DNA of 64,000 nt from Candidatus Omnitrophota bacterium (GTDB lineage Bacteria; Omnitrophota; Gorgyraeia; Gygaellales; Profunditerraquicolaceae). The DNA is taken from NCBI GenBank assembly GCA_016783715.1, contig JADHWA010000001.1, forward strand, positions 118 to 64,117, in the 5' to 3' direction. Positions within the stretch are counted from its first letter, which is position 1. Every line of letters begins with the position of its first letter. Made by a program: the position numbers and the translations under genes. The notes below the pieces were generated by a model. The model did no database searches. It was not told the DNA's origin and saw only the letters and a list, made by a program, of their open reading frames with translations. This document shows positions 4,943 through 56,180 of this stretch, in pieces.

Positions 4943-5120
4943 TTAATGAGCGCATAACTTAGCGAAGCTAAGTTATAGCGTCCGTTATTTTACTTGTATA
5001 TAAGCGTGCGCGAATTAACCCAGCACTTATTTGGCATGTGCTTAGCATTCAACAAATAAGTGCTGGGCAAATTCCCCCGCACCCAAACAAGTAGTAGTAT
5101 ACACTTGACTGGGTGCGGGG
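4943..5120. repeat. type-A three-hairpin intergenic repeat element (fills the prmC stop to murA start spacer)
   Basis: hairpins ATAACTTAGC-GAA-GCTAAGTTAT, CCCAGCACTTATTTG..CAAATAAGTGCTGGG, CCCCGCACCCA..TGGGTGCGGGG; linker GCGAATTAA; termini AATGAG / TCATTT. Confidence 0.7.
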
Positions 5121-5948
5121 TCATTTGACCTTTTGCGCTATAATGATTCTCTCTATATTATTATAATCTCTAATTATCCTATAAACAGAAAAATCTTTCC
5201 TCTTTTTTAAAATACTCTCTACGGGCCTCCTCTGATTCAACCCGATCTCCAGGGCCAGAAACCCACCTGGCTGGAGATGTTTTAAGGAGCCAGCGATTAT
5301 CCTGCGATAAAAGTCTAATCCATCCCTGCCGCCATCTAAGCCAATACGCGGTTCATAACCAATCTCAGACGCCAAATTATCGATCTCTCCAGAGACAATA
5401 TAAGGCGGATTACTGACAATAATGTCGCATGTCGCATGTCGCATGTCGCATGTCGCAAACAAATCAGATTGGATAAACTCTATCCTTTTATCTACATAGT
5501 GCAAAGAGGCGTTATTTTTGGCTACTTCAAGCGCTTTCTCTGAAATATCAGTAGCGGTTATTGCTACCTGTGGTAATAATTTAGCCAGCGATACCGCAAT
5601 ACATCCCGAACCGGTACCTATCTCTAAGATCCTCCTACGATTAGCGATATGCGATAAGCGATTAGCTAACTTTATTATTGCTTCTACTAAAAGTTCTGTT
5701 TCCGGACGCGGGATAACCACTCCGGGATTTACCTTAAATTCAAAGCCCATAAATTCCTGTTTACCTAATATATACTGCAGGGGCTCACCTTTGGCTCTTC
5801 GTTTTAGAACAGAAGAGATCAAGCGCAATTGACTCTTATTAGGGGCCGGAGGTCTGCGGCTATAGAGGTCAATGCGATTGCACTTTAGAACATCGGTAAA
5901 TAATAATTCAGCTTCGTTCACCCAGCCTTTCCTCCTACTTGTACCCAA
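5121..5948 (-). CDS. prmC: release factor glutamine N5-methyltransferase
   Basis: IVSNPPYI motif, AdoMet-binding GTGSG; start uncertain (TTG as called; the N-terminus lies in a tandem repeat). Confidence 0.8.
   Translation of the reverse strand: MGTSRRKGWVNEAELLFTDVLKCNRIDLYSRRPPAPNKSQLRLISSVLKRRAKGEPLQYILGKQEFMGFEFKVNPGVVIPRPETELLVEAIIKLANRLSHIANRRRILEIGTGSGCIAVSLAKLLPQVAITATDISEKALEVAKNNASLHYVDKRIEFIQSDLFATCDMRHATCDIIVSNPPYIVSGEIDNLASEIGYEPRIGLDGGRDGLDFYRRIIAGSLKHLQPGGFLALEIGLNQRRPVESILKKRKDFSVYRIIRDYNNIERIIIAQKVK
5422..5456. repeat. heptamer microsatellite (ATGTCGC)x5 inside prmC coding sequence
   Basis: perfect 5 copies; encodes ATCDMRHATCD just before NPPY. Confidence 0.85.
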
Positions 5949-6043
5949 CCCTTTGGAAAGGCTGGGTCCTCCTACTTGTACCCAACCCTTTAGAAGGGCT
6001 GGGTCCTCCTATTTGTTTCCCAGTCCTTTATGAAGGGCTGGGT
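5931..6043. repeat. tandem repeat, 3 copies of 37-39 bp (CCTCCTACTTGTACCCAACCCTTTGGAAAGGCTGGGT) spanning the prfA stop and prmC start
   Basis: units at 5931-5967, 5968-6004, 6005-6043; the third unit encodes the prfA C-terminus. Confidence 0.8.
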
Positions 6044-7106
6044 CCTCTGCTGCCTTGATCAGAGCCAGAGAGACCTCATCAAGATCACCATCAAGCACTG
6101 CTTCTAATCGATGTATGGTAAAATTAATCCGATGGTCAGTAACCCGGCGGTCCGGAAAATTATAGGTACGGATCTTCTCGCTGCGATCCCCGGTACCGAT
6201 CTGTGAACGCCTCTCCTGGGAGACCTTCTTAGATTCCTCATGTTGTTTGGCATCCAGTAGGCGGGCGCGCAGTATACGCATTGCCCTAACTTTGTTTTTT
6301 CCCTGAGAACGCTCATCCTGACAGGCTACTACCGTACCGGTGGGGATATAGGTAATTCTCACTGCCGAATCAGTCTTTTGCATATGTTGGCCGCCGGGGC
6401 CGCTGGAGCGGTAAGTATCGATCCTCAGATCTTTGGCATCGATCTTTAAGTCTACTTCCTTAGGCTCAACCAGCACCGCTACCGTGGCCGTAGAGGTATG
6501 TATCCTCCCCTGCGCTTCGGTAACCGGAACACGCTGCACCCGGTGGACACCGCTTTCAAATTTAAGCCTCTTATAGGCATTCGGCCCTTTTACGCTAAAA
6601 GATACGTCTTTAAATCCCCCTGACTCATTGGTACTAGCTGACATCAACTCGACCTTCCACCCTTTATTGGCGGCATATTTTGTATACATCCGGTAAAGAT
6701 CAGCGGCAAATAGACCAGCCTCGTTTCCTCCGGTCCCCTGCCTGATCTCAACGATCAGATCCCTGCCCAAATCCTTGTCTTCTCCGGAAAGCATCTTCTT
6801 CAGGCGCTGCTGGAGGTCAACCCTCTTATTATTTAATTCCTCCGTCTCCTTTCGGGCCAGCTCCAGAAATTCTTCATCATGCTTCTCCTCTAAAACCTTT
6901 GCCAGATCGAGGATCTCGGCCGACACCCGCTGATACTCTAGAAACAACGCTACCGGCCCCCTAAGAGAAGCCATCTCCTTTGCGTATTTATTACACTCCT
7001 CCCTGTTTGAAATCACCTCAGGAGAAACTAAGAGCGCTTCCAGTTCCTGATATCTTTTTTTCATTGTTTCCAGCTGCTCGAACATAATAGTAAAACTCCC
7101 TGGCAC
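6009..7106 (-). CDS. prfA: peptide chain release factor 1
   Basis: GGQ motif ([10 protein letters not shown]), PVT tripeptide region, RF1 length. Confidence 0.9.
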
Positions 7107-13297: not shown

Positions 13298-14107
13298 TTA
13301 TTTTGTCAATAGCCGTAATTGGATCTTCTCGACAAACTCTGAAATCTCCTCATTCCTGGGATCCAGCTGCATTGCGCTGATTCCGTCCCGAAAGGCCTCG
13401 GCCAGCTCGTCTCTCTGATAGTGCCCTCTGGCTCGCCCCAGATAGACCTTGGCAGCCTCTAAATCATCAGCTCTCATTAATTCCTTCTGAGCGGAGATAT
13501 CAAGTGCCAAATCCACTGCTTTGTTTTCTTGTACTACGTCGATATCCTTACCTAAAGCATAATACACGTCATTTAACCGCCCGCTTGCCCTCTCGGTCCA
13601 GGGATCATTGGGGTCCCCCAGGTCAATTCTCTTCTCCCAATAAGTAGCAGCTTCCTCAAACTTCCTCTGGCCCTGATACAGAGAAGCTAAATTAAAGTAT
13701 GCGCCCAGATATCCCGGATCAACCATGATTGCCATCTTATAGGCCTCTTCGGCTGCCACTATATTCCCCAAGGCCTCAGCGGTTATCCCCAGGTCGTTGT
13801 AGGCAGTCGCATATAGCGGATCCGCATAAACCGCCCTCTGGTAGAAGCTCATGGCCACCTGATAATTACCTCCGCCCTGGGCTTCTGCACCGAGGCTCCT
13901 GTATTCCCTGGCCATCCTGCGCAAAGGAAACAGGTCGTCATCCTCATCTAGAGTTGCGTCAGGTGATTTATCCCTGGAACCTGGTGGTTTTACGAAGTCA
14001 AATTCGAAGGTATCCGCGCTGGCAACACTAGAGACAAAAAAGCCGCTTAGTAGAATTGATAAAATTAAGCTGATTCTTAACGTAATTTTAAAGGCGGGAT
14101 GAGGCAT
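13298..14107 (-). CDS. secreted TPR-repeat protein
   Basis: signal peptide plus several TPR-like repeats (AYNDLG, AYFNLASLY). Confidence 0.6.
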   Translation of the reverse strand: MPHPAFKITLRISLILSILLSGFFVSSVASADTFEFDFVKPPGSRDKSPDATLDEDDDLFPLRRMAREYRSLGAEAQGGGNYQVAMSFYQRAVYADPLYATAYNDLGITAEALGNIVAAEEAYKMAIMVDPGYLGAYFNLASLYQGQRKFEEAATYWEKRIDLGDPNDPWTERASGRLNDVYYALGKDIDVVQENKAVDLALDISAQKELMRADDLEAAKVYLGRARGHYQRDELAEAFRDGISAMQLDPRNEEISEFVEKIQLRLLTK

Positions 14108-14119
14108 TTATTTGATTTT

Positions 14120-14147
14120 ATTATACATCCGAATACTGTATGGTCAA
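14120..14147 (-). promoter_or_regulatory. sigma70-like promoter candidate (TTGACC-16-TATAAT) for the TPR gene
   Basis: the -10 lies 12 nt upstream of the ATG; the -35 overlaps the first repeat of the upstream array. Confidence 0.5.
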
Positions 14148-14300
14148 GGAAAATTTACCTCTGGTAACAAGGAATTTTCCTTGATCTTGAGCAACGGAAG
14201 AGCGAAAGATCTCAAGGAAAATCTACACCTACATAGCCCCTCTCTCCTTGATCTCGAGGAGCAAAAGCGACGAGAGATCTCAAGGAAAATTTACCTCTGG
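14142..14300. promoter_or_regulatory. 68-bp periodic repeat array: TCAAGGAAAAT(T/C)TAC at 14144, 14212 and 14280, with inverted partners (CAAGGAATTTTCCTTGA, CCTTGATCTCGAGG)
   Basis: direct repeats exactly 68 bp apart, each with a dyad half-site; sits immediately upstream of and overlapping the -35. Confidence 0.55.
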
Positions 14301-14309
14301 AGACAGAGA

Positions 14310-16490
14310 TTACATCATCGGATCCATCTCTAAGGCCGGATGTTTTAGCTTCTGTAATGACTCCAATAGCTGCTCAGAAGTAGTTGTGGTTGTTTCATCT
14401 GCGATTTTTTCGATCAGATCCGGCTGGCCAAGCTCTTCGGCCCTCTTCTTTAATTTATCCCCCAGGAGTTCTTTGAGCTCCTTAGGCATCCAGAGCAGCC
14501 GTTTTAGCCCTCCTTCAGCAGAGATGAATTTCTTACTTACAAGGTATAATTTTCCTACACCTAAAAATCCGGGAGTCTGGACCCCGCCACCAACTGACCC
14601 GGCAAGAGTAGTAAAACTCATCCCGCAGGGGGTCATCCCGGAATAATCACGATGCACTACCATTACCCCGTTTGCTTCAGGAATAATTGCTACAATACAT
14701 TCAAAGCAGCCGCAGGAAGATTGCGGAGAGTCCATCAGCGAATACATACTCACTTTCTCTATGGTTTTATTTGATTTGCTGTAGAAGAATTCATTAATAT
14801 CTTTCCACTGTCCCAAATTCTGATCAACTACCGCTCCTTTAGCGACAGGTTGATTCGGTCCGGTAGGCGTAATCTCATAAGAAGCCTTCCCGTCCAGCCA
14901 GGAATAAGCCCCACATAGCCCCAGCCGCTCAGGAGTAATCATACAGACATGATTAGGAGCAAAGCTCTGACAGAGTGTACAGCTATAAAAGGTATCTACG
15001 CTCTCATCGGTCATTCCTCTTAAACGCTCGTCGCGCTCTTTAAAGGTATTACTGGCCTCTGCTAATAATTTTTCGAGATCCTCCTGCTTGGTATAGATTT
15101 TTATCTGCACCTTATCTACGATTGCGCTATACTCCTGATGCAACATCGCATGCAAGATCACGCCGATATGTTTAAGCCGGAATCCTTTACTGAAGGCCTC
15201 CTGAGAAACCCTGATCCAATTCATATCTCTCTGGCCCACATGCATCAGTCCCATAGCATAATTTACGAAACGATGGATCTGTCGCTCCAGAACAGGCTCA
15301 AAATCCTTCTGCATCTTACGTCCGGCGACTTCCACAATCAAGGCCAAAGGCATGGATTTTTTCCCCTTCTCAGGCTGATCTATATCAGGACCGATAATCT
15401 CGATCTTGCCGTCAACGACTTGATCCATATCTTTCATCGTCAGGTACTCAAATGCCTGTCCTGATTTACCCCCAAACTCAAGCTGAAGCTGCTCTTTACG
15501 CACACGCTCCCCCTCAAAAGCCGCTGCATAGGATACCGGCACTGCGATATTACTGACCTTGACCTTAACTCCCCTTACCTCGATACAGCGCGGGACTATT
15601 TTTTTATGATCCAGTTCCTTAACCAGGGCTTCATAGACGGTTATCCCGGAAGGCTTGATCTCGGGTATATCGGTATCAGCGATAATCGGAAAACCCATAT
15701 TGATCGCTCCGGCTCCGGTGGCATATTTAATATCATCCAATTCCCCCAAAACCAGCCCAAAGGCAAATACGCGTTCCTTTGTATAGAGAAGACACTTCTC
15801 GGCCTGGCCAGGCTTAATACCTCCGAAGGTCAGAGCCGAGCGAATTGCCCAATTCAAAGGATAGATACCGGAGATGGTATCCCGTCCGTATGGAACGATA
15901 TAATTATCCCACCCCATCTGGACATTCTCTTCTATTAACTGGTCAATTATTGAACGTCCGTTTACCGATGAACCGACAAATGCCAGGATATTTCTCTGCT
16001 GAAGCTCTCGCACAATCTTTACCGCTGTCTGATTATCCGGGGCGGCACCCAATATCGCAGCAAACCCGGGCATGCGCCCATCAACCAGCTGGATCCCCAG
16101 TGAACGCATAATAGTATCAGTAAAGAAGCCATTGCAATCTTTCTGCGGTTCCTGCTGATATAGATAACGGAGTGCTACGATTATCTCCTCAGAGAAGAGT
16201 GTGGCCATTCCGGCGTTTAGGGCATCCCCTAAATAAGGAAGCCATACTTTATCTGCCGGCACCTGAGGCAACAAACTCTCGGCATGTTTAAGGATAGCTA
16301 TGGCGTCCTTTAAGGTTTCAACCTTCACTCCCAAAAGCGCATTGGCCATAGGCATGTAAAATGCGGTCTCGGGAAATTCTATCCTTTGACTCTCTCCTTT
16401 TTCTTTAATCGCTTTATCCAGGAAATCAGATGCCTGCTTAAAGACCTCCCGGGATCCTCTAATAACTGCCTCAGCTACTATTTTAGACAT
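14310..16490 (-). CDS. acsB: CO-methylating acetyl-CoA synthase subunit (CODH/ACS alpha, AcsB)
   Basis: Near-collinear with Moorella AcsB: GKIEIIGPDIDQ, TFYSCTLCQSFAPNHVC, CGCFECIVAI, TPGFLGVGK, IADETT..HPALEMDPMM. Confidence 0.9.
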   Translation of the reverse strand: MSKIVAEAVIRGSREVFKQASDFLDKAIKEKGESQRIEFPETAFYMPMANALLGVKVETLKDAIAILKHAESLLPQVPADKVWLPYLGDALNAGMATLFSEEIIVALRYLYQQEPQKDCNGFFTDTIMRSLGIQLVDGRMPGFAAILGAAPDNQTAVKIVRELQQRNILAFVGSSVNGRSIIDQLIEENVQMGWDNYIVPYGRDTISGIYPLNWAIRSALTFGGIKPGQAEKCLLYTKERVFAFGLVLGELDDIKYATGAGAINMGFPIIADTDIPEIKPSGITVYEALVKELDHKKIVPRCIEVRGVKVKVSNIAVPVSYAAAFEGERVRKEQLQLEFGGKSGQAFEYLTMKDMDQVVDGKIEIIGPDIDQPEKGKKSMPLALIVEVAGRKMQKDFEPVLERQIHRFVNYAMGLMHVGQRDMNWIRVSQEAFSKGFRLKHIGVILHAMLHQEYSAIVDKVQIKIYTKQEDLEKLLAEASNTFKERDERLRGMTDESVDTFYSCTLCQSFAPNHVCMITPERLGLCGAYSWLDGKASYEITPTGPNQPVAKGAVVDQNLGQWKDINEFFYSKSNKTIEKVSMYSLMDSPQSSCGCFECIVAIIPEANGVMVVHRDYSGMTPCGMSFTTLAGSVGGGVQTPGFLGVGKLYLVSKKFISAEGGLKRLLWMPKELKELLGDKLKKRAEELGQPDLIEKIADETTTTTSEQLLESLQKLKHPALEMDPMM

Positions 16491-18194: not shown

Positions 18195-18296
18195 AAATGA
18201 ACGCATAACTTACGATCCGCCGCAGGCGGAGAGTAAGTTATATGCGTGAATTTATTCCCGGGCTCTGGTGGTGCGCAAAGGAAGCCCGGGAATCTC
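18194..18296. repeat. type-B two-hairpin repeat element (cooS stop to cooF start)
   Basis: TAAATGAACGCATAACTTAC..GTAAGTTATATGCGTGAATTTATTCCCGGGCT..AGCCCGGGAATCT. Confidence 0.7.
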
Positions 18297-18308: not shown

Positions 18309-20222
18309 CTAACCGTTCTGATACATCATCGGCTTGAGCTTCAGGCCCTGGCGTTTTTTGTCGATATGCGCGATCATAAGATGAGCCGCCTTTATCGGAT
18401 CTACCTCAAAAGCGAATTTTCCTCCTACTATATTCTCTAAATCCTTAGTAATAAAATCAGTAACCTTCTGACTTCCTAAAACCGGCTGTGGCGTGCCAAA
18501 AACAGTAAATACCCCACTGGCTACAAAATAGAAACCGATAGAGATAGCTTTTTCACTCATCCATTCAGGGGCTGCCCCTGCTACTGGCAGGTCACTTAAA
18601 GATTCACCCAATCCGCCTTCTTCGACGATTTTAGAGCAGGCAATCAAAATTCTGGAATTATCTACGCAGCTGCCTACATGTAAAACCGGAGGAATGCCTA
18701 CGGCTTCGCAGATCTCCCGCAACCCATTACCGGCAAATTTAAGAGCTGCCTCAGGCTTAAGCAAACCCATCTTGGCATTAGCTATTGCGGAGCAGCCAGT
18801 CACGACTACTAAAACATCATTCTTAATCAACTCTTTGACCATTTCTGTATGGCCAAAATCATGGCGGACATTAGGATTATTGCAGCCCACTACTCCGGCC
18901 ACCCCCCTTAATCTACCGGAAATTATCCCTTCGTTTACAGGTTTCCAGGTTGATCGGTATTTACCTCCGATTATATAAGGAATATCCTCAGCGGTAAAAC
19001 CGGCCACTAAATCCATTGTTTCCTGAGGTATCACTACCCGTTCCTTCCTGCGATTCTTAAAATTCTCCACAGCTCTTTTAATAATCGTTTTTGATATCTC
19101 CATGGCTCTCTTCTCGTCAAATCCAATATGTGTTACCCCGGGAAATTTTGCTTTGGGGCTAGTAGTAATCAACTCAGTATGGAAACAATTAGCCAGCTCC
19201 GCTAAAGCAGGCATAATGCACTGCACATCAACCATCATTAACTCTACCGAACCTGTAAGAATCGCCAATTCCTGCTGCAGGAAGTTACCCGCTGAATGGA
19301 TACCGTGGCGCATAAGCATCTCATTAGCCGTACAGCACATCCCTACGATATTTATCCCCTCTGCGCCGTTCTTCTTTGCCAGCTTGATCAACTCAGCATC
19401 CTCTGCGGCCTGGACAACTACGTCGGACAGAGTAGGCTCATGTCCATGCACTACAACATTTACGTAATTCTCCTTTAATACTCCCAAGTTTACCTTTGAT
19501 TTGATGGGATTGGGGGCGCCGAATAAGATATCGCTCAACTCTGTAGCAATCATCGAACCGCCCCAACCGTCAGATAAAGCAGTGCGCAGCCCGTGCATAA
19601 TGATGTTCTTATAATCATTATCTACGCCCATGTGTGTACGATGCATACACTCAACAATCTCACGGTCAATTCCCCGAGGGGTAACCCCCAGCTTCCGCCA
19701 GAGATCCTGGGTTTTCTTTGGTGCGCGGGAAATAAACCGCAGTTCACCCTCTTGCTGCCCAAACTCAGACAAAGCCTTCAAAGCCACCTCGCCGGCGATC
19801 TCCAAATCCTTCTTACCATCAAGTTTGATTCCATACAGCGTGGCAATCTCCCTTAATCTTACCGGATTATTGACCCCGTAATCATGTGCTTTGCCTTCGG
19901 CTGCCAATAACAGGGCCTCGGCGATATCTCTTCCATGATCAGAATGAGCAGCCGCTCCTGTGGCGATCATCCTTAAAAGATTGCGCGCTACGATAGTGTC
20001 AGCGCTGGCCCCACAGACACCCTTCTGCGGCCCCTCGCCAAAAGGATCGATACGGCACGGCCCCATATTGCAAATACGGCAACAAATTCCCAGCTGACCA
20101 AAGCCACATTGTGGCTGCATAGTATCATAACGATCCCAGACAATTTTTATATTTTGAGCCTCGGCCTGCTCAATCATCTGCTGACTGGCAACATCTACAC
20201 TTTTTTGCTTTGCATCACTCAT
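18309..20222 (-). CDS. cooS: anaerobic carbon-monoxide dehydrogenase catalytic subunit
   Basis: CGFGQLGICCRICNMGPC N-terminal cluster motifs, about 630 aa, Ni-CODH family. Confidence 0.9.
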   Translation of the reverse strand: MSDAKQKSVDVASQQMIEQAEAQNIKIVWDRYDTMQPQCGFGQLGICCRICNMGPCRIDPFGEGPQKGVCGASADTIVARNLLRMIATGAAAHSDHGRDIAEALLLAAEGKAHDYGVNNPVRLREIATLYGIKLDGKKDLEIAGEVALKALSEFGQQEGELRFISRAPKKTQDLWRKLGVTPRGIDREIVECMHRTHMGVDNDYKNIIMHGLRTALSDGWGGSMIATELSDILFGAPNPIKSKVNLGVLKENYVNVVVHGHEPTLSDVVVQAAEDAELIKLAKKNGAEGINIVGMCCTANEMLMRHGIHSAGNFLQQELAILTGSVELMMVDVQCIMPALAELANCFHTELITTSPKAKFPGVTHIGFDEKRAMEISKTIIKRAVENFKNRRKERVVIPQETMDLVAGFTAEDIPYIIGGKYRSTWKPVNEGIISGRLRGVAGVVGCNNPNVRHDFGHTEMVKELIKNDVLVVVTGCSAIANAKMGLLKPEAALKFAGNGLREICEAVGIPPVLHVGSCVDNSRILIACSKIVEEGGLGESLSDLPVAGAAPEWMSEKAISIGFYFVASGVFTVFGTPQPVLGSQKVTDFITKDLENIVGGKFAFEVDPIKAAHLMIAHIDKKRQGLKLKPMMYQNG

Positions 20223-38614: not shown

Positions 38615-38676
38615 GATTACACAGATTAGAGTTAGATTACACAGATTAAACCTTTGATGAATTAATCTGTGTAATC
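38615..38676. repeat. GATTACA-box element (between the CpaF-like ATPase and proS)
   Basis: GATTACACAGATTA x2 direct, TAATCTGTGTAATC inverted (14-bp TIR-like). Confidence 0.7.
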
Positions 38677-48535: not shown

Positions 48536-48720
48536 CAATGAGCAGATCCTTGACATCGGAGATGTCAAGGATAGCGTCAATCGTTTATCAGTCTATCAGC
48601 GTCTGCGAATTGAACCCAGCACTAATTTTGCTTCGGATCGTAAACTACAGAAAATTAGTGCTGGGTAAAATTCAGCCACCGAACTTACCTCGCTTACTCT
48701 CCGTAAGTTCGGGCTTCATT
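48536..48720. repeat. type-A three-hairpin repeat element (stop of the nucleotidase-like gene to leuA-like start)
   Basis: collinear with 4943-5120: linker AGCGTC..GCGTCTGCGAATTGAACCCAGCAC conserved, hairpin sequences swapped (CCTTGACATC../..GATGTCAAGG; CCGAACTTAC..GTAAGTTCGG). Confidence 0.7.
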
Positions 48721-50505
48721 TTACCTCCTGAATATTTTCTTGAATTCCTCTTGGCTGCCTGGGCCGCTGGTGCTGAAAATCTGCTGATTATCGATTAAGA
48801 ATGTAGGCCCGAACATAACCTGTAATTCACTATTAAGCCTGATGTTCTCGCTGAGCAAATCTCTTCCCTCCTGACTCCTGGCACAGTCTCTGACCCGGGA
48901 GACGTCGCATTCACCCGATAGACACTCCTCCCACCAGGAGCTGTTGATATTTTTTGCCCGGCAGATTATATAATCCCAGAAATCCTGCGGACACCAAGTT
49001 TTGACACAGAGGCTGCGCAGATACTCCTCGATCTCACCGGTGCCACCGGCAGAATCGAATTTACCCTCTAGCTCGGTGGCCAGGAAGTGAATCCGGGGAT
49101 CAAAACTCCTGGTTGCTTCTAATATAGACGATGAATACTTATTGTAGAGGCTTATGAATAGGTCAAGGCCCCCGGATATTTTCTTCCTGTTGATATAATA
49201 GGATACGCCCGAGAATTCCGGTTTAAGTATTAGAAACTCATCCCCCTCGACGAACTTCTCTCTTAAGGCCCCAAAATTAGGCTCTTCGACGATCTCTTTC
49301 TCAAAGATAAAGGCCGGCAGAGTCTGGATATCCAGCTCGGCGACTATTTTCCTGGCTTGCCTTTGGGGATAGACAAGCTTAGAAGTAGTTACCCCTGGAA
49401 ATGTCTCTTCAAGATAAGTAATACTCCCGGCTGCATTAAACAACTCCCTTCTCTTGGGTTCAATTACCCAGAGCTTAACCTCCCCGGCAGGAGTAAATTC
49501 ACACTTAGCATCTGAAGTGCCCGGATTACCACAGGAGGCAATACTTCCTTTCTTCTTGCAATCGTTATCCCTGAAACACTGCGGCAGGACAGATTTAATC
49601 TCAGGATCGTCCCTAAACTTCTTGGTCAGTTCTATATCTTCGCTCTTTACATCTGTTATCCGGCCTGCCTCTATCTCCAGGGTAACCTTGCCTAAACTTC
49701 TGGCCTGCCAGGAAGGCTGTAAGATTATGGTGGAACTCTCTTCTGCCGTAAGGTCCTTCTCCATCCTGTTGTATCTGGTTATAAGTAGATCTACCCCCGG
49801 CACCTTCTTGACTAACTCCAGATCTTCACCCGGATCCAGCCGGCTCAAAAGTATGATTACTCCGACCTGATTATCTTTTAGCTGCTTAATCGTATCCCGG
49901 AGCGCTTCTTGGGGGGCGCTGACGCTGACACCGGATACTCTTCTGGCTATCCTGGGAGCTGATATGCCGATAATCCCCACCTTGACACTGCCGACTTGCT
50001 TGATAATAAAAGGATGAATCTTATCAAGCTTAACATTGCATGATACAAGCGGGAATTTATTCTCGTCGGAGAATTTTGTAAAGAACTCTTTCCCGAAGCC
50101 AAACTCATCCTCTCCGATACAGGCAGCGGTATACCCCATCAATTGCATCGCCCTGATATTGGCCAGTGTTCTCTCTTTATCAAGCCGGGAATTCTGCGCG
50201 TATTCATCTTGTGGTCCCCCGGCAAAAAAAGATCCCGAATCAAGTAATAAGGCATCAGGAGCCTGCTTTCTGATCTGCTTTACCAGCGTAGACCTACGGG
50301 CTAAACCCCCGTTTCGCTCGTGCGGGCAGTCACAAGGGTATAGCATCGCGTGAGTGTCGCCGGTATATAAAATTGTAATTTCCTCCGCGAAAGAGAGCGA
50401 AAAGTTCAAAACGCAAAGTGCAAAACTAAAACTTAAAGCTAAAAGCTTTACACTTTTAACTTCACCTTTGCGCTCTGCGCTTTGCGCTTTGCGCTTATTT
50501 ATCAT
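48721..50505 (-). CDS. secreted calcineurin-like metallophosphoesterase / 5'-nucleotidase-family protein with Cys-rich and DsbA-like C-terminal extension
   Basis: signal peptide; GDTHA metallophosphatase motifs; C-terminal GPTFLIDNQ resembles a thioredoxin-fold cis-Pro loop; many Cys. Confidence 0.55.
   Translation of the reverse strand: MINKRKAQSAERKGEVKSVKLLALSFSFALCVLNFSLSFAEEITILYTGDTHAMLYPCDCPHERNGGLARRSTLVKQIRKQAPDALLLDSGSFFAGGPQDEYAQNSRLDKERTLANIRAMQLMGYTAACIGEDEFGFGKEFFTKFSDENKFPLVSCNVKLDKIHPFIIKQVGSVKVGIIGISAPRIARRVSGVSVSAPQEALRDTIKQLKDNQVGVIILLSRLDPGEDLELVKKVPGVDLLITRYNRMEKDLTAEESSTIILQPSWQARSLGKVTLEIEAGRITDVKSEDIELTKKFRDDPEIKSVLPQCFRDNDCKKKGSIASCGNPGTSDAKCEFTPAGEVKLWVIEPKRRELFNAAGSITYLEETFPGVTTSKLVYPQRQARKIVAELDIQTLPAFIFEKEIVEEPNFGALREKFVEGDEFLILKPEFSGVSYYINRKKISGGLDLFISLYNKYSSSILEATRSFDPRIHFLATELEGKFDSAGGTGEIEEYLRSLCVKTWCPQDFWDYIICRAKNINSSWWEECLSGECDVSRVRDCARSQEGRDLLSENIRLNSELQVMFGPTFLIDNQQIFSTSGPGSQEEFKKIFRR
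50467..50494. repeat. heptamer microsatellite (TTTGCGC / TCTGCGC)x4 at codons 5-13 of the nucleotidase-like gene
   Basis: 4 copies, 1 variant; encodes KRKAQSAERK. Confidence 0.7.
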
Positions 50506-52088: not shown

Positions 52089-52117
52089 CCTACACTCCTT
52101 TAATGTTCCTGCAAAAA

Positions 52118-52232
52118 ACTCTAAACCCTAAATCCTAAACCCTAAATAAAATCCTAAATCCAAAACTCAAATTATTAAAAATAAAACTTTGGGTTTGTTT
52201 AGAGTTTAGTGTTTCGAACTTAGGATTTAAAA
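52118..52232. repeat. CCCTAAA-type heptamer repeats plus long imperfect inverted repeat between the serC-like gene and serA
   Basis: AACTCTAAACCCTAAATCCTAAACCCTAAAT.. pairs with ..GTTTAGAGTTTAG..TTAGGATTTAAA. Confidence 0.6.
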
Positions 52233-53394: not shown

Positions 53395-53526
53395 CAATAA
53401 GCTGACCCAGCCCTTGCATGCAAGGGCGGGGTAGCATCTATTGTTTACCAATCTATTAAGCGTCTGCGCATTGAACCCAGCACCCAGTCTAGTATTTATA
53501 TTACTTGTTTGGGTGCGGGGTCATTT
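53395..53526. repeat. type-A repeat element (upstream of the serC-like gene)
   Basis: GTTTACCAATCTATTAAGCGTCTGCGCATTGAACCCAGCAC block about 85% identical to 48582-48625; ends GGGTGCGGGGTCATTT as at 5103-5120. Confidence 0.7.
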
Positions 53527-55327: not shown

Positions 55328-55374
55328 TCCTTGTCTCCAGGTTTAATTGTTAGATATAATCAAAGGCTACAGTT

Positions 55375-55448
55375 GATTACACAGATTATAAAATAGATTA
55401 CTCAGATTAAAACTCTTATCTGCGTAATCTGAATTAATCTGTGTAATC
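55375..55448. repeat. GATTACA-box element (lptB to tig spacer)
   Basis: GATTACACAGATTA, GATTACTCAGATTA direct; TATCTGCGTAATC and TAATCTGTGTAATC inverted. Confidence 0.7.
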
Positions 55449-55457
55449 ATATTTAAC

Positions 55458-56180
55458 CTACATTTTAAATCTTTCACCTAGGTAGATTTCTCTGGCCTTG
55501 GGATTGTTGATCAGGTCGTCGGCGCTTCCTGCAATCAGGATCTTTCCCTCGGCGATCAGATAGGCCCGGTCAGTAATCGTCAGGGTCTCTCTGACATTAT
55601 GATCGGTAAGCAGTATCCCCAACCCCCTCTCTTTGAGCTCTTTGATGATCTCCTGAGCCTCATTGACCACGATCGGATCTATTCCTGAGAAAGGTTCATC
55701 GAGGAGGATAAACGACGGATTGGTTACCAGTGCCCGGGTTATCTCTAAACGCCTTCTTTCTCCTCCCGAGAGGGTAAATGCCTTATTCTTCCTTAAATAG
55801 GCGATGTTTAACTCATCTAAAAGGCTCTCCAGCCTGTTCTCTCTCTCCTTCTTGCTGATCGGAAGGGTCTCCAGGATCGCCATGATATTCTCTTCAACGG
55901 TGAGCTTACGAAAGATAGAAGCCTCCTGCGAAAGATATCCGATCCCGTAACGGGCACGCTCATGAATAGAGAGGTTGGTAATATCGCTATTATCGAAAGT
56001 AATCTTCCCGCTTTTAGGCGGTATAACTCCCACGATCATATAGAATGTGGTAGTCTTACCTGCTCCGTTAGGGCCAAGTAGACCTACGATCTCTCCGCGC
56101 TTTACTACTAAATCTACGCCTCTGACTACTTCCCTTCCGCCGTATGCCTTAGAGAGCCCTTTTACTTCGAGTAGATGCAT
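55458..56180 (-). CDS. lptB: LPS export ABC transporter ATP-binding protein
   Basis: GPNGAGKTT Walker A, LSGGERRRLEI signature. Confidence 0.85.
   Translation of the reverse strand: MHLLEVKGLSKAYGGREVVRGVDLVVKRGEIVGLLGPNGAGKTTTFYMIVGVIPPKSGKITFDNSDITNLSIHERARYGIGYLSQEASIFRKLTVEENIMAILETLPISKKERENRLESLLDELNIAYLRKNKAFTLSGGERRRLEITRALVTNPSFILLDEPFSGIDPIVVNEAQEIIKELKERGLGILLTDHNVRETLTITDRAYLIAEGKILIAGSADDLINNPKAREIYLGERFKM

Follow-up and report, generated by a model that had tools for sequence, protein, structure and literature searches.

Mycobacterial interspersed repetitive units (MIRU-VNTR) consist of 40-100-bp units that lie between the genes of operons and vary in copy number from strain to strain. 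Intergenic minisatellites or VNTRs of bacteria provide the wider context for such loci (PMC5056196, PMC2413405). Structured repeats between co-directional genes also include the REP/BIME sequences of Enterobacteria, which form 3'-untranslated stem-loops and can bar 3' exonucleases (PMC2777011). In addition, template switching that perfects inverted repeats is documented in bacteria (PMC5941160, PMC7202029). Herein, we describe an array of 68-bp units situated at a terminator-promoter junction. Judging from the aligned sequences, we consider it somewhat probable that this array represents a lineage-specific, copy-number-variable 68-bp intergenic minisatellite (VNTR-like) rather than a set of regulator binding sites.

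The array lies in a stretch of 64,000 nucleotides from a Candidatus Omnitrophota MAG (the window, meaning the whole 64 kb that were analysed), and the genes around it are all on the minus strand. According to Pfam and the ORF list, their order is cooS (18309-20222), a 4Fe-4S protein gene, an FAD/NAD oxidoreductase gene, acsB, the spacer, a gene for a TPR-repeat protein, polA, glgA, and coaE. The initial annotation had placed the array between acsB and the TPR gene, and Pfam confirms the identity of both. The immediate setting is as follows.

14310..16490, minus strand: acsB, acetyl-CoA synthase beta subunit (Pfam ACS_CODH_B_C at 1e-122 and CdhC at 1e-65; ORF list)
14108-14309, minus strand: acsB-TPR spacer, 202 bp
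14120..14147, minus strand: sigma-70-type promoter, TTGACC (14147..14142)-16-TATAAT (14125..14120), 11/12 match
13298..14107, minus strand: gene for a TPR-repeat protein of 269 aa (Pfam TPR families)

acsB is the final gene of the cooS/Fe-S protein/FAD oxidoreductase/acsB cluster, with its TAA stop codon at 14312-14310. A cluster look-up showed that the TPR protein, whose N-terminus appears signal-peptide-like (…FFVSSVASA/DT), is identical to MBL7069849.1, which comes from a Candidatus Omnitrophota MAG. At the protein level, it evolves much faster than acsB, with dN/dS values of 0.25-0.52 vs 0.08-0.12 when window positions 13298-14107 (TPR) and 14313-15212 (acsB) are compared with the relatives L002-L005 described below.

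On the plus strand, the 11-mer TCAAGGAAAAT starts at 14144, 14212, and 14280; the spacing of 68 and 68 bp is exact, as first noted, and these are the only three copies in the 64-kb window. Its reverse complement has one exact copy there, at 14174. By our arithmetic, 128 kb of two-strand sequence should contain an exact 11-mer ~0.03 times, and the only other 11-mer that is tripled within 200 bp in the window belongs to a 37-bp tandem array at 5930-6047. The inverted partners AAGGAATTTTCCTTGA (14169) and CCTTGATCTCGAGG (14246) are both present as well. The three reported AGATCT palindromes, on the other hand, are actually two (14207 and 14275), the third palindrome being CTCGAG (14253). Because the genes here are all on the minus strand, the repeat reads ATTTTCCTTGA in the sense direction, and the array contains the 11-mer three times direct and twice inverted, i.e., five copies in alternating orientation. 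Aligned from the stop codon onward, the spacer read in the sense direction falls into three frames of 68, 68, and 66 nt.

14242..14309, minus strand: unit 1 (U1), 68 bp; TCTCTGTCTCCAGAGGTAAATTTTCCTTGA then GATCTCTCGTCGCTTTTGCTCCTCGAGATCAAGGAGAG; the native 30-nt module (small hairpin plus AAATTTTCCTTGA) and 38 nt closing palindrome A
14174..14241, minus strand: unit 2 (U2), 68 bp; AGGGGCTATGTAGGTGTAGATTTTCCTTGA then GATCTTTCGCTCTTCCGTTGCTCAAGATCAAGGAAAAT; a diverged copy of the 30-nt module (…GTGTAGATTTTCCTTGA) and 38 nt closing palindrome B
14108..14173, minus strand: unit 3 (U3), the native promoter region; TCCTTGTTACCAGAGGTAAATTTTCCTTGA then CCATACAGTATTCGGATGTATAATAAAATCAAATAA, then ATG; the third CCAGAGGTAAATTTTCCTTGA copy, the remaining promoter sequence, and ~5 nt of leader

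The first 30 nt of U1 and U3 are identical at 26/30 positions, including a perfect run of 21, and the ungapped identities amount to 32/68 for U1/U2 and 37/66 for U1/U3. In a gapped alignment of U1 and U2, the 3' 48 nt are ~83% alike (our count), unlike the first 20 nt. Tandem Repeats Finder returned nothing between 13500 and 15000, the divergence of the units being too great for it. No local source of the 17-20-nt loop sequences could be identified by blastn-short of the spacer against the window, and the only Rfam match at a permissive E-value within 13800-14600 was to a lncRNA (E = 0.48) outside the array, which we judged meaningless. The independent ENA assembly L001 carries the array with one SNP different, and it is therefore not an assembly artefact.

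Starting from homologues of the TPR protein and their contigs, we obtained eleven orthologous acsB-TPR junctions, representing five haplotypes plus an outgroup. Their spacers are constituted as follows.

L004 and L005, 66 bp, no extra unit: stop codon, small hairpin, AAATTTTCCTTGACC-16-TATAAT-12-ATG
Window and L001, 202 bp, two extra units: the 66-bp spacer plus 136 bp (2 x 68) directly after the TTGA of the -35
L003, L079, L080, L081, and L083, 116 bp, one extra unit: one hairpin unit, small hairpin deleted
L002 and L082, 160 bp, no extra unit: zero hairpin units; the -10 and the ATG are separated by a 94-bp insertion of unrelated sequence
L006, a distant outgroup (~75% nucleotide identity at the acsB 3' end), 71 bp, no extra unit: TTTTTTTCTTGACA-16-TATAAT-13-ATG, no hairpins

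In length, 202-66 equals 2 x 68 and 116 equals 66+68-18, and the degenerate 68-bp tandem duplication that had been suggested holds: the window has the spacer of its relatives plus exactly two units. When 136 nt after the first TTGA are removed from the window's spacer, it shows 5/66 differences from L004 (our count), and the first 30 nt of U1 together with the last 36 nt of U3 reconstitute the 66-bp spacer of L004/L005. In neighbour-joining trees of both the TPR gene and the acsB 3' end, the window's sister is the hairpin-free L002 clade (nucleotide identity to the window of 94.8% and 98.2%, respectively), and the one-unit clade stands separate. Identity of the flanking genes is 91-98% among the genomes that carry the 0-, 1-, and 2-unit alleles. 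In their hairpin-containing parts, U1, U2, and the unit of L003 agree at ~83%, which is similar to the neutral divergence between lineages. As in a VNTR, the copies follow each other head-to-tail at a constant period, and the spacers of close genomes differ by unit-sized lengths. Since the array is missing from close relatives with the same promoter, these comparisons argue for an intergenic minisatellite and not for a conserved regulatory device.

The insertion of the L002 lineage (L002 1039-1134 and L082 658-753, 94-96 bp) is a separate one with its own hairpin, GCCCCAA-N15-TTGGGGC. It is flanked by duplicated GATGTATAA / AAAATCAAAT and has no match in the window by blastn-short. The 66-bp spacer, having received different insertions in sister lineages, therefore seems to be a hotspot.

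The likeness to MIRU-VNTR lies in a unit of tens of base pairs, the head-to-tail arrangement between co-directional genes, and a copy number of 0, 1, or 2 extra units. Unlike MIRUs, which occupy ~40 loci, the array was found at a single locus, and its units are far more diverged from one another. Each unit moreover holds a palindrome built on the flank of the neighbouring promoter, and the small ORFs that are often found in MIRUs are not evident in the array.

The promoter proposed for the TPR gene at the outset, with the near-leaderless start implied by an ATG (14107) 12 nt past the -10, is supported by its conservation. TTGACC-16-TATAAT-12-ATG is conserved in four of the five haplotypes, the exception being L002/L082 with their 94-bp insertion between the -10 and the ATG, and the outgroup has TTGACA-16-TATAAT-13-ATG (L006 2958-3003). 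The predicted TPR mRNA is nearly leaderless and lacks a Shine-Dalgarno sequence (window 14105-14147). The hexamers themselves are invariant across all five haplotypes despite an inter-lineage dS of 0.12-0.35, and selection therefore acts on the promoter, not on the array. A promoter scan of the minus strand listed no extra promoters within units 1 and 2 besides the native one. As read from the aligned spacers, the repeated 11-mer is the TPR promoter's own upstream/-35 flank, which pre-exists in the array-free alleles. Likewise, the 5' arm of the large hairpins is native, being present as ATTTTCCTTGACC in the hairpin-free haplotypes and as TTTTTTTCTTGACA in L006.

From these alleles, a course of events can be proposed. 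The ancestral spacer would have measured 66 bp and comprised the stop codon, a small terminator-like hairpin, the A/T-rich tail AAATTTTCC, and TTGACC-16-TATAAT-12-ATG, with the tail doubling as the upstream flank of the TPR promoter. In the window's lineage, two units (136 bp) would then have been placed immediately past the TTGA of the -35. The first part of each unit would be ~38 nt in length and would finish with the ATTTTCCTTGA(GATCT) that precedes it, now inverted, thus closing a palindrome on native sequence; in the second part, the 30-nt native module would be copied anew in direct orientation. The TPR promoter is left intact because its -35 and the flank upstream are restored by the last of these direct copies. 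We infer a local origin via inverted-then-direct template switching or slippage, after which recombination or slippage involving the direct repeats of 21-30 bp may have added and removed units, and such events would account for the clean 0-, 1-, and 2-unit alleles. The complementarity of the arms may have been kept either by weak selection or by template-switch correction of quasi-palindromes.

This proposal resembles quasi-palindrome/template-switch mutagenesis (PMC5941160, PMC7202029, PMC13100816) in that an inverted copy of adjacent sequence makes or perfects a hairpin, in that the arms stay complementary without the need of selection, and in its promoter-proximal location. It differs in the direct 30-nt re-duplication, in a loop for which the search gave no source, and in the iteration to two units, and the mechanism is put forward here as a proposal. 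The functional consequence is probably small. The stop codon and terminator of the acs operon would be shifted 136 bp from the TPR promoter, and an acs transcript that reads through would gain two stem-loops of about -17 kcal/mol each; at most, the array would provide hairpins past the acs operon, as part of a 3' UTR or as insulation.

The stem-loops of the spacer are the features that could speak for more than a minisatellite.

14293..14310, minus strand: small terminator-like hairpin, ATCTCTG-tctc-CAGAGGT then AAATTTTCCTT; terminator scan, -7.5 kcal/mol
14243..14288, minus strand: hairpin A, UUUUCCUUG...(internal loop)...UCUCG / CGAGA...CAAGGAGAG; 9+5 bp, -17.6 kcal/mol
14173..14223, minus strand: hairpin B, GAUUUUCCUUGA-ga-UCUU / AAGA-UCAAGGAAAAUU; 12+4 bp, 2-nt bulge, -17.1 kcal/mol

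The small hairpin belongs both to the ancestral 66-bp spacer and to unit 1, has a T-rich tail with four U residues, and is the sole terminator-like site that the terminator scan lists within the spacer (14310-14293). It is retained in L002/L004/L005 with 2/7 pairs changed on both sides, a covariation that is suggestive but not significant with four sequences, and the L003 haplotype has lost it by deletion. Together with the T-rich tail, which is also the upstream flank of the next promoter, the small hairpin gives the ancestral spacer the appearance of a compact terminator-promoter junction. Compared with Rho-independent terminators, however, the small hairpin is weak (-7.5 kcal/mol, four U), and hairpins A and B fall outside the terminator definition altogether.

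A and B are extragenic imperfect palindromes that fold into stable hairpins, scoring 71 and 73 bits, respectively, with the hairpin covariance model. Among the three distinct hairpins compared, 95.6% of stem cells pair while the loops differ extensively; 2/15 stem pairs are replaced on both sides (in each case U-A by C-G), and the 2-nt bulge is conserved. In hairpin A, two of the pairs are G-U on the sense strand. As for hairpin B, its 3' arm has a possible alternative partner in the third copy of the repeat at the -35 (14144-14155), with 12-nt perfect arms 17 nt apart, and the full-length MFE fold adopts this alternative pairing.

The retention of stems while loops differ, the compensatory changes, the sense-only G-U pairs, and the conserved bulge all speak against a mere minisatellite, and the conservation of the stems could reflect selection on RNA or DNA structure. 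A and B may accordingly be read as 3'-UTR stem-loops of the acs operon that are under selection, either to block 3'-5' exonucleases or to strengthen termination and the insulation of the TPR-polA unit from the highly expressed acs operon, by analogy with E. coli REP/BIME. We regard this as possible but rather doubtful. In its favour, both stem-loops lie directly past the acsB stop codon on the sense strand, the G-U pairs of hairpin A are valid on the sense transcript only, the large hairpin of the L003 haplotype replaces the small one right after the stop codon, and REP stem-loops are known as structured 3' barriers (PMC2777011). Neither hairpin has a U-tract, however, the tails being GAGAGGGGCU and AAAAUUCCUUGUU, and neither is listed by the terminator scan. 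A and B are also preceded by the terminator-like hairpin and its T-rich tail and may therefore be little transcribed. Furthermore, the two stem-loops form on either strand with an equally good antisense fold, the covariation is not significant with three sequences (105/500 shuffles reach it), and three lineages with the same operon manage without the hairpins.

Template-switch correction of quasi-palindromes yields the same stem pattern without selection (PMC5941160, PMC7202029), so that the hairpins can be accommodated by the minisatellite as well. The latter does carry a burden of its own: a recent simple duplication would have left the units more alike than 32/68, the array must therefore be about as old as the radiation of the lineages, and with so old a duplication several precise losses or recombinational exchange have to be assumed.

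The initial annotation had raised the possibility of a phased multi-site operator for the TPR gene. On this reading, the five ATTTTCCTTGA half-sites would be occupied by a regulator that oligomerises or forms loops, and the TPR promoter would be under its control. The alternating orientation of the 11-mer copies, the overlap of one copy with the -35, and the 12-nt perfect inverted repeat flanking the promoter-proximal region fit such a device, which nevertheless seems very unlikely to us. The added direct and inverted copies are absent from the sister lineage L002/L082 and from L004 and L005, which all retain this promoter and this TPR gene, and from L006 as well; conservation is confined to the sole native copy at the -35, which is the promoter's own upstream flank. 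Moreover, 68 bp divided by 10.5 makes 6.5 helical turns, and neighbouring direct copies are therefore out of phase. The arms are 17 or 27 nt apart, unlike those of a dimer operator, and no regulator gene adjoins the array, its neighbours by Pfam being acsB, TPR, polA, glgA, and coaE.

Further sites within the 64 kb are lacking, too. The 11-mer has no other exact copies in the window, and matches with one mismatch stay at chance level; motif searches and blastn across the window returned no further copy of the hairpin, and the covariance model, run over the 64 kb with filters off, detected nothing beyond A and B (next match 13.8 bits, E = 0.28). Sequence collections were scanned with the exact-match two-arm pattern CCTTGAGATCT-N12-30-AGATCAAGG. 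Among the GTDB species representatives, 33 single matches in unrelated taxa without flanking similarity were rejected as chance, including L033, an example with two weak blast matches that lies inside ribosomal protein genes. The JGI metagenomes gave 39 unrelated matches, none with TTTTCC/GGAAAA flanks or further similarity, which is consistent with chance. The idea that other dyads might define a regulon thus found no backing in the 64-kb window, the GTDB representatives, or the JGI metagenomes. We conclude that the hairpin appears to be local, not dispersed, within the ~64 kb of this genome, the few kb of its relatives, and the exact-match scans of the collections.

Other repeats of the window include a dispersed palindromic family, GAATT[A/G]AACCCAGCACT[T/A]ATTT and its inverse, at two distant loci (5012-5074 and 48607-48673), with further positions listed at 5065-5130, 5920-5967, and 53405-53432. 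In appearance, this is a true REP-like family belonging to the genome. Related ACCCAGC…GCTGGGT hairpins occur in the window together with the 37-bp x 3.1 tandem array mentioned above (90% matches). A second inverted-repeat motif, GATTACACAGATTA(A) / TTAATCTGTGTAATC, is found 17 kb apart at 38615-38676 and 55364-55459, and the inverted repeat at 38635-38676 has 15-nt perfect arms. Inside the acs/coo cluster, the spacer between cooS and the 4Fe-4S protein gene (18205-18293) holds two further inverted repeats, one at 18205-18241 (17-nt arms, 88% complementary, 3-nt loop) and one at 18254-18293 (11-nt perfect arms ATTCCCGGGCT/AGCCCGGGAAT). In addition, there are 7-nt tandem arrays at 5422-5457, 50466-50496, and 52116-52166 (ATGTCGC x5.1, perfect; CTTTGCG x4.4; AAACCCT-like x4-7). 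As other dispersed palindromic families were found in the window, such families are detectable at this scale.

This bears on another reading, according to which the unit is a miniature mobile palindromic element (REP/REPIN-, MITE-, or IS200/IS605-PATE-like) that inserts 3' of TTGA, excises precisely, and landed twice in tandem at the -35. The array shares with REP/BIME the imperfect palindromes that form stem-loops, sometimes in tandem or alternating orientation. The insert indeed starts right past TTGA, each unit ends in TTGA, presence and absence are clean among close relatives, the L002 lineage has received another hairpin-bearing 94-bp insertion in the same 66-bp spacer, and the genome does hold other dispersed palindromic families. 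Nonetheless, we deem such an element very improbable. REPs are mobilised by RAYT transposases and come in hundreds of dispersed copies, unlike this hairpin, for which no second locus is detectable in the window, the GTDB representatives, or the JGI metagenomes; half of the hairpin is native promoter sequence, its 5' arm being present in the uninterrupted alleles and the outgroup, and the 30-nt local copy in each unit (a flanking direct repeat of 21-30 bp) far exceeds any target-site duplication.

Lastly, a degenerate CRISPR array (~26-nt repeat, ~42-nt spacer) would fit the 68-bp period, which is within the CRISPR range, and the three repeat copies, but its "spacers" share 78% identity and include the repeat in inverse form, and the third repeat is the conserved promoter; given also that the structure is repeated in an independent assembly with one SNP and the one-unit allele in five separate assemblies, both CRISPR and assembly artefact are refuted, their probability being negligible.

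Coming back to the minisatellite, its alternating copies might even so form a real switch that couples transcription of the Wood-Ljungdahl operon to expression of TPR-polA, although we hold this to be very unlikely. The 3' arm of hairpin B would then have two alternative partners, namely its own 5' arm and the copy over the TPR -35, and coupling would be brought about by acs read-through (at the RNA level) or by cruciform extrusion or slipped structures (at the DNA level). If true, this uncultured Omnitrophota lineage would possess a contingency locus, its tuning knob being the number of units, which is inherited and differs from strain to strain.

The locus carries a caution, as a periodic, dyad-rich array over a good promoter looks operator-like, and it is a handful of orthologous spacers that reveal a promoter flank duplicated and inverted in one lineage. 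It also documents a conserved, putatively sigma-70-like and near-leaderless promoter in Omnitrophota. Finally, the alleles with 0, 1, or 2 units form a clean series of natural origin, located where a terminator meets a promoter in an uncultured phylum; this series may serve as a strain marker, and it may also offer a test case for the evolution of promoter-proximal palindromes by template switching and slippage.
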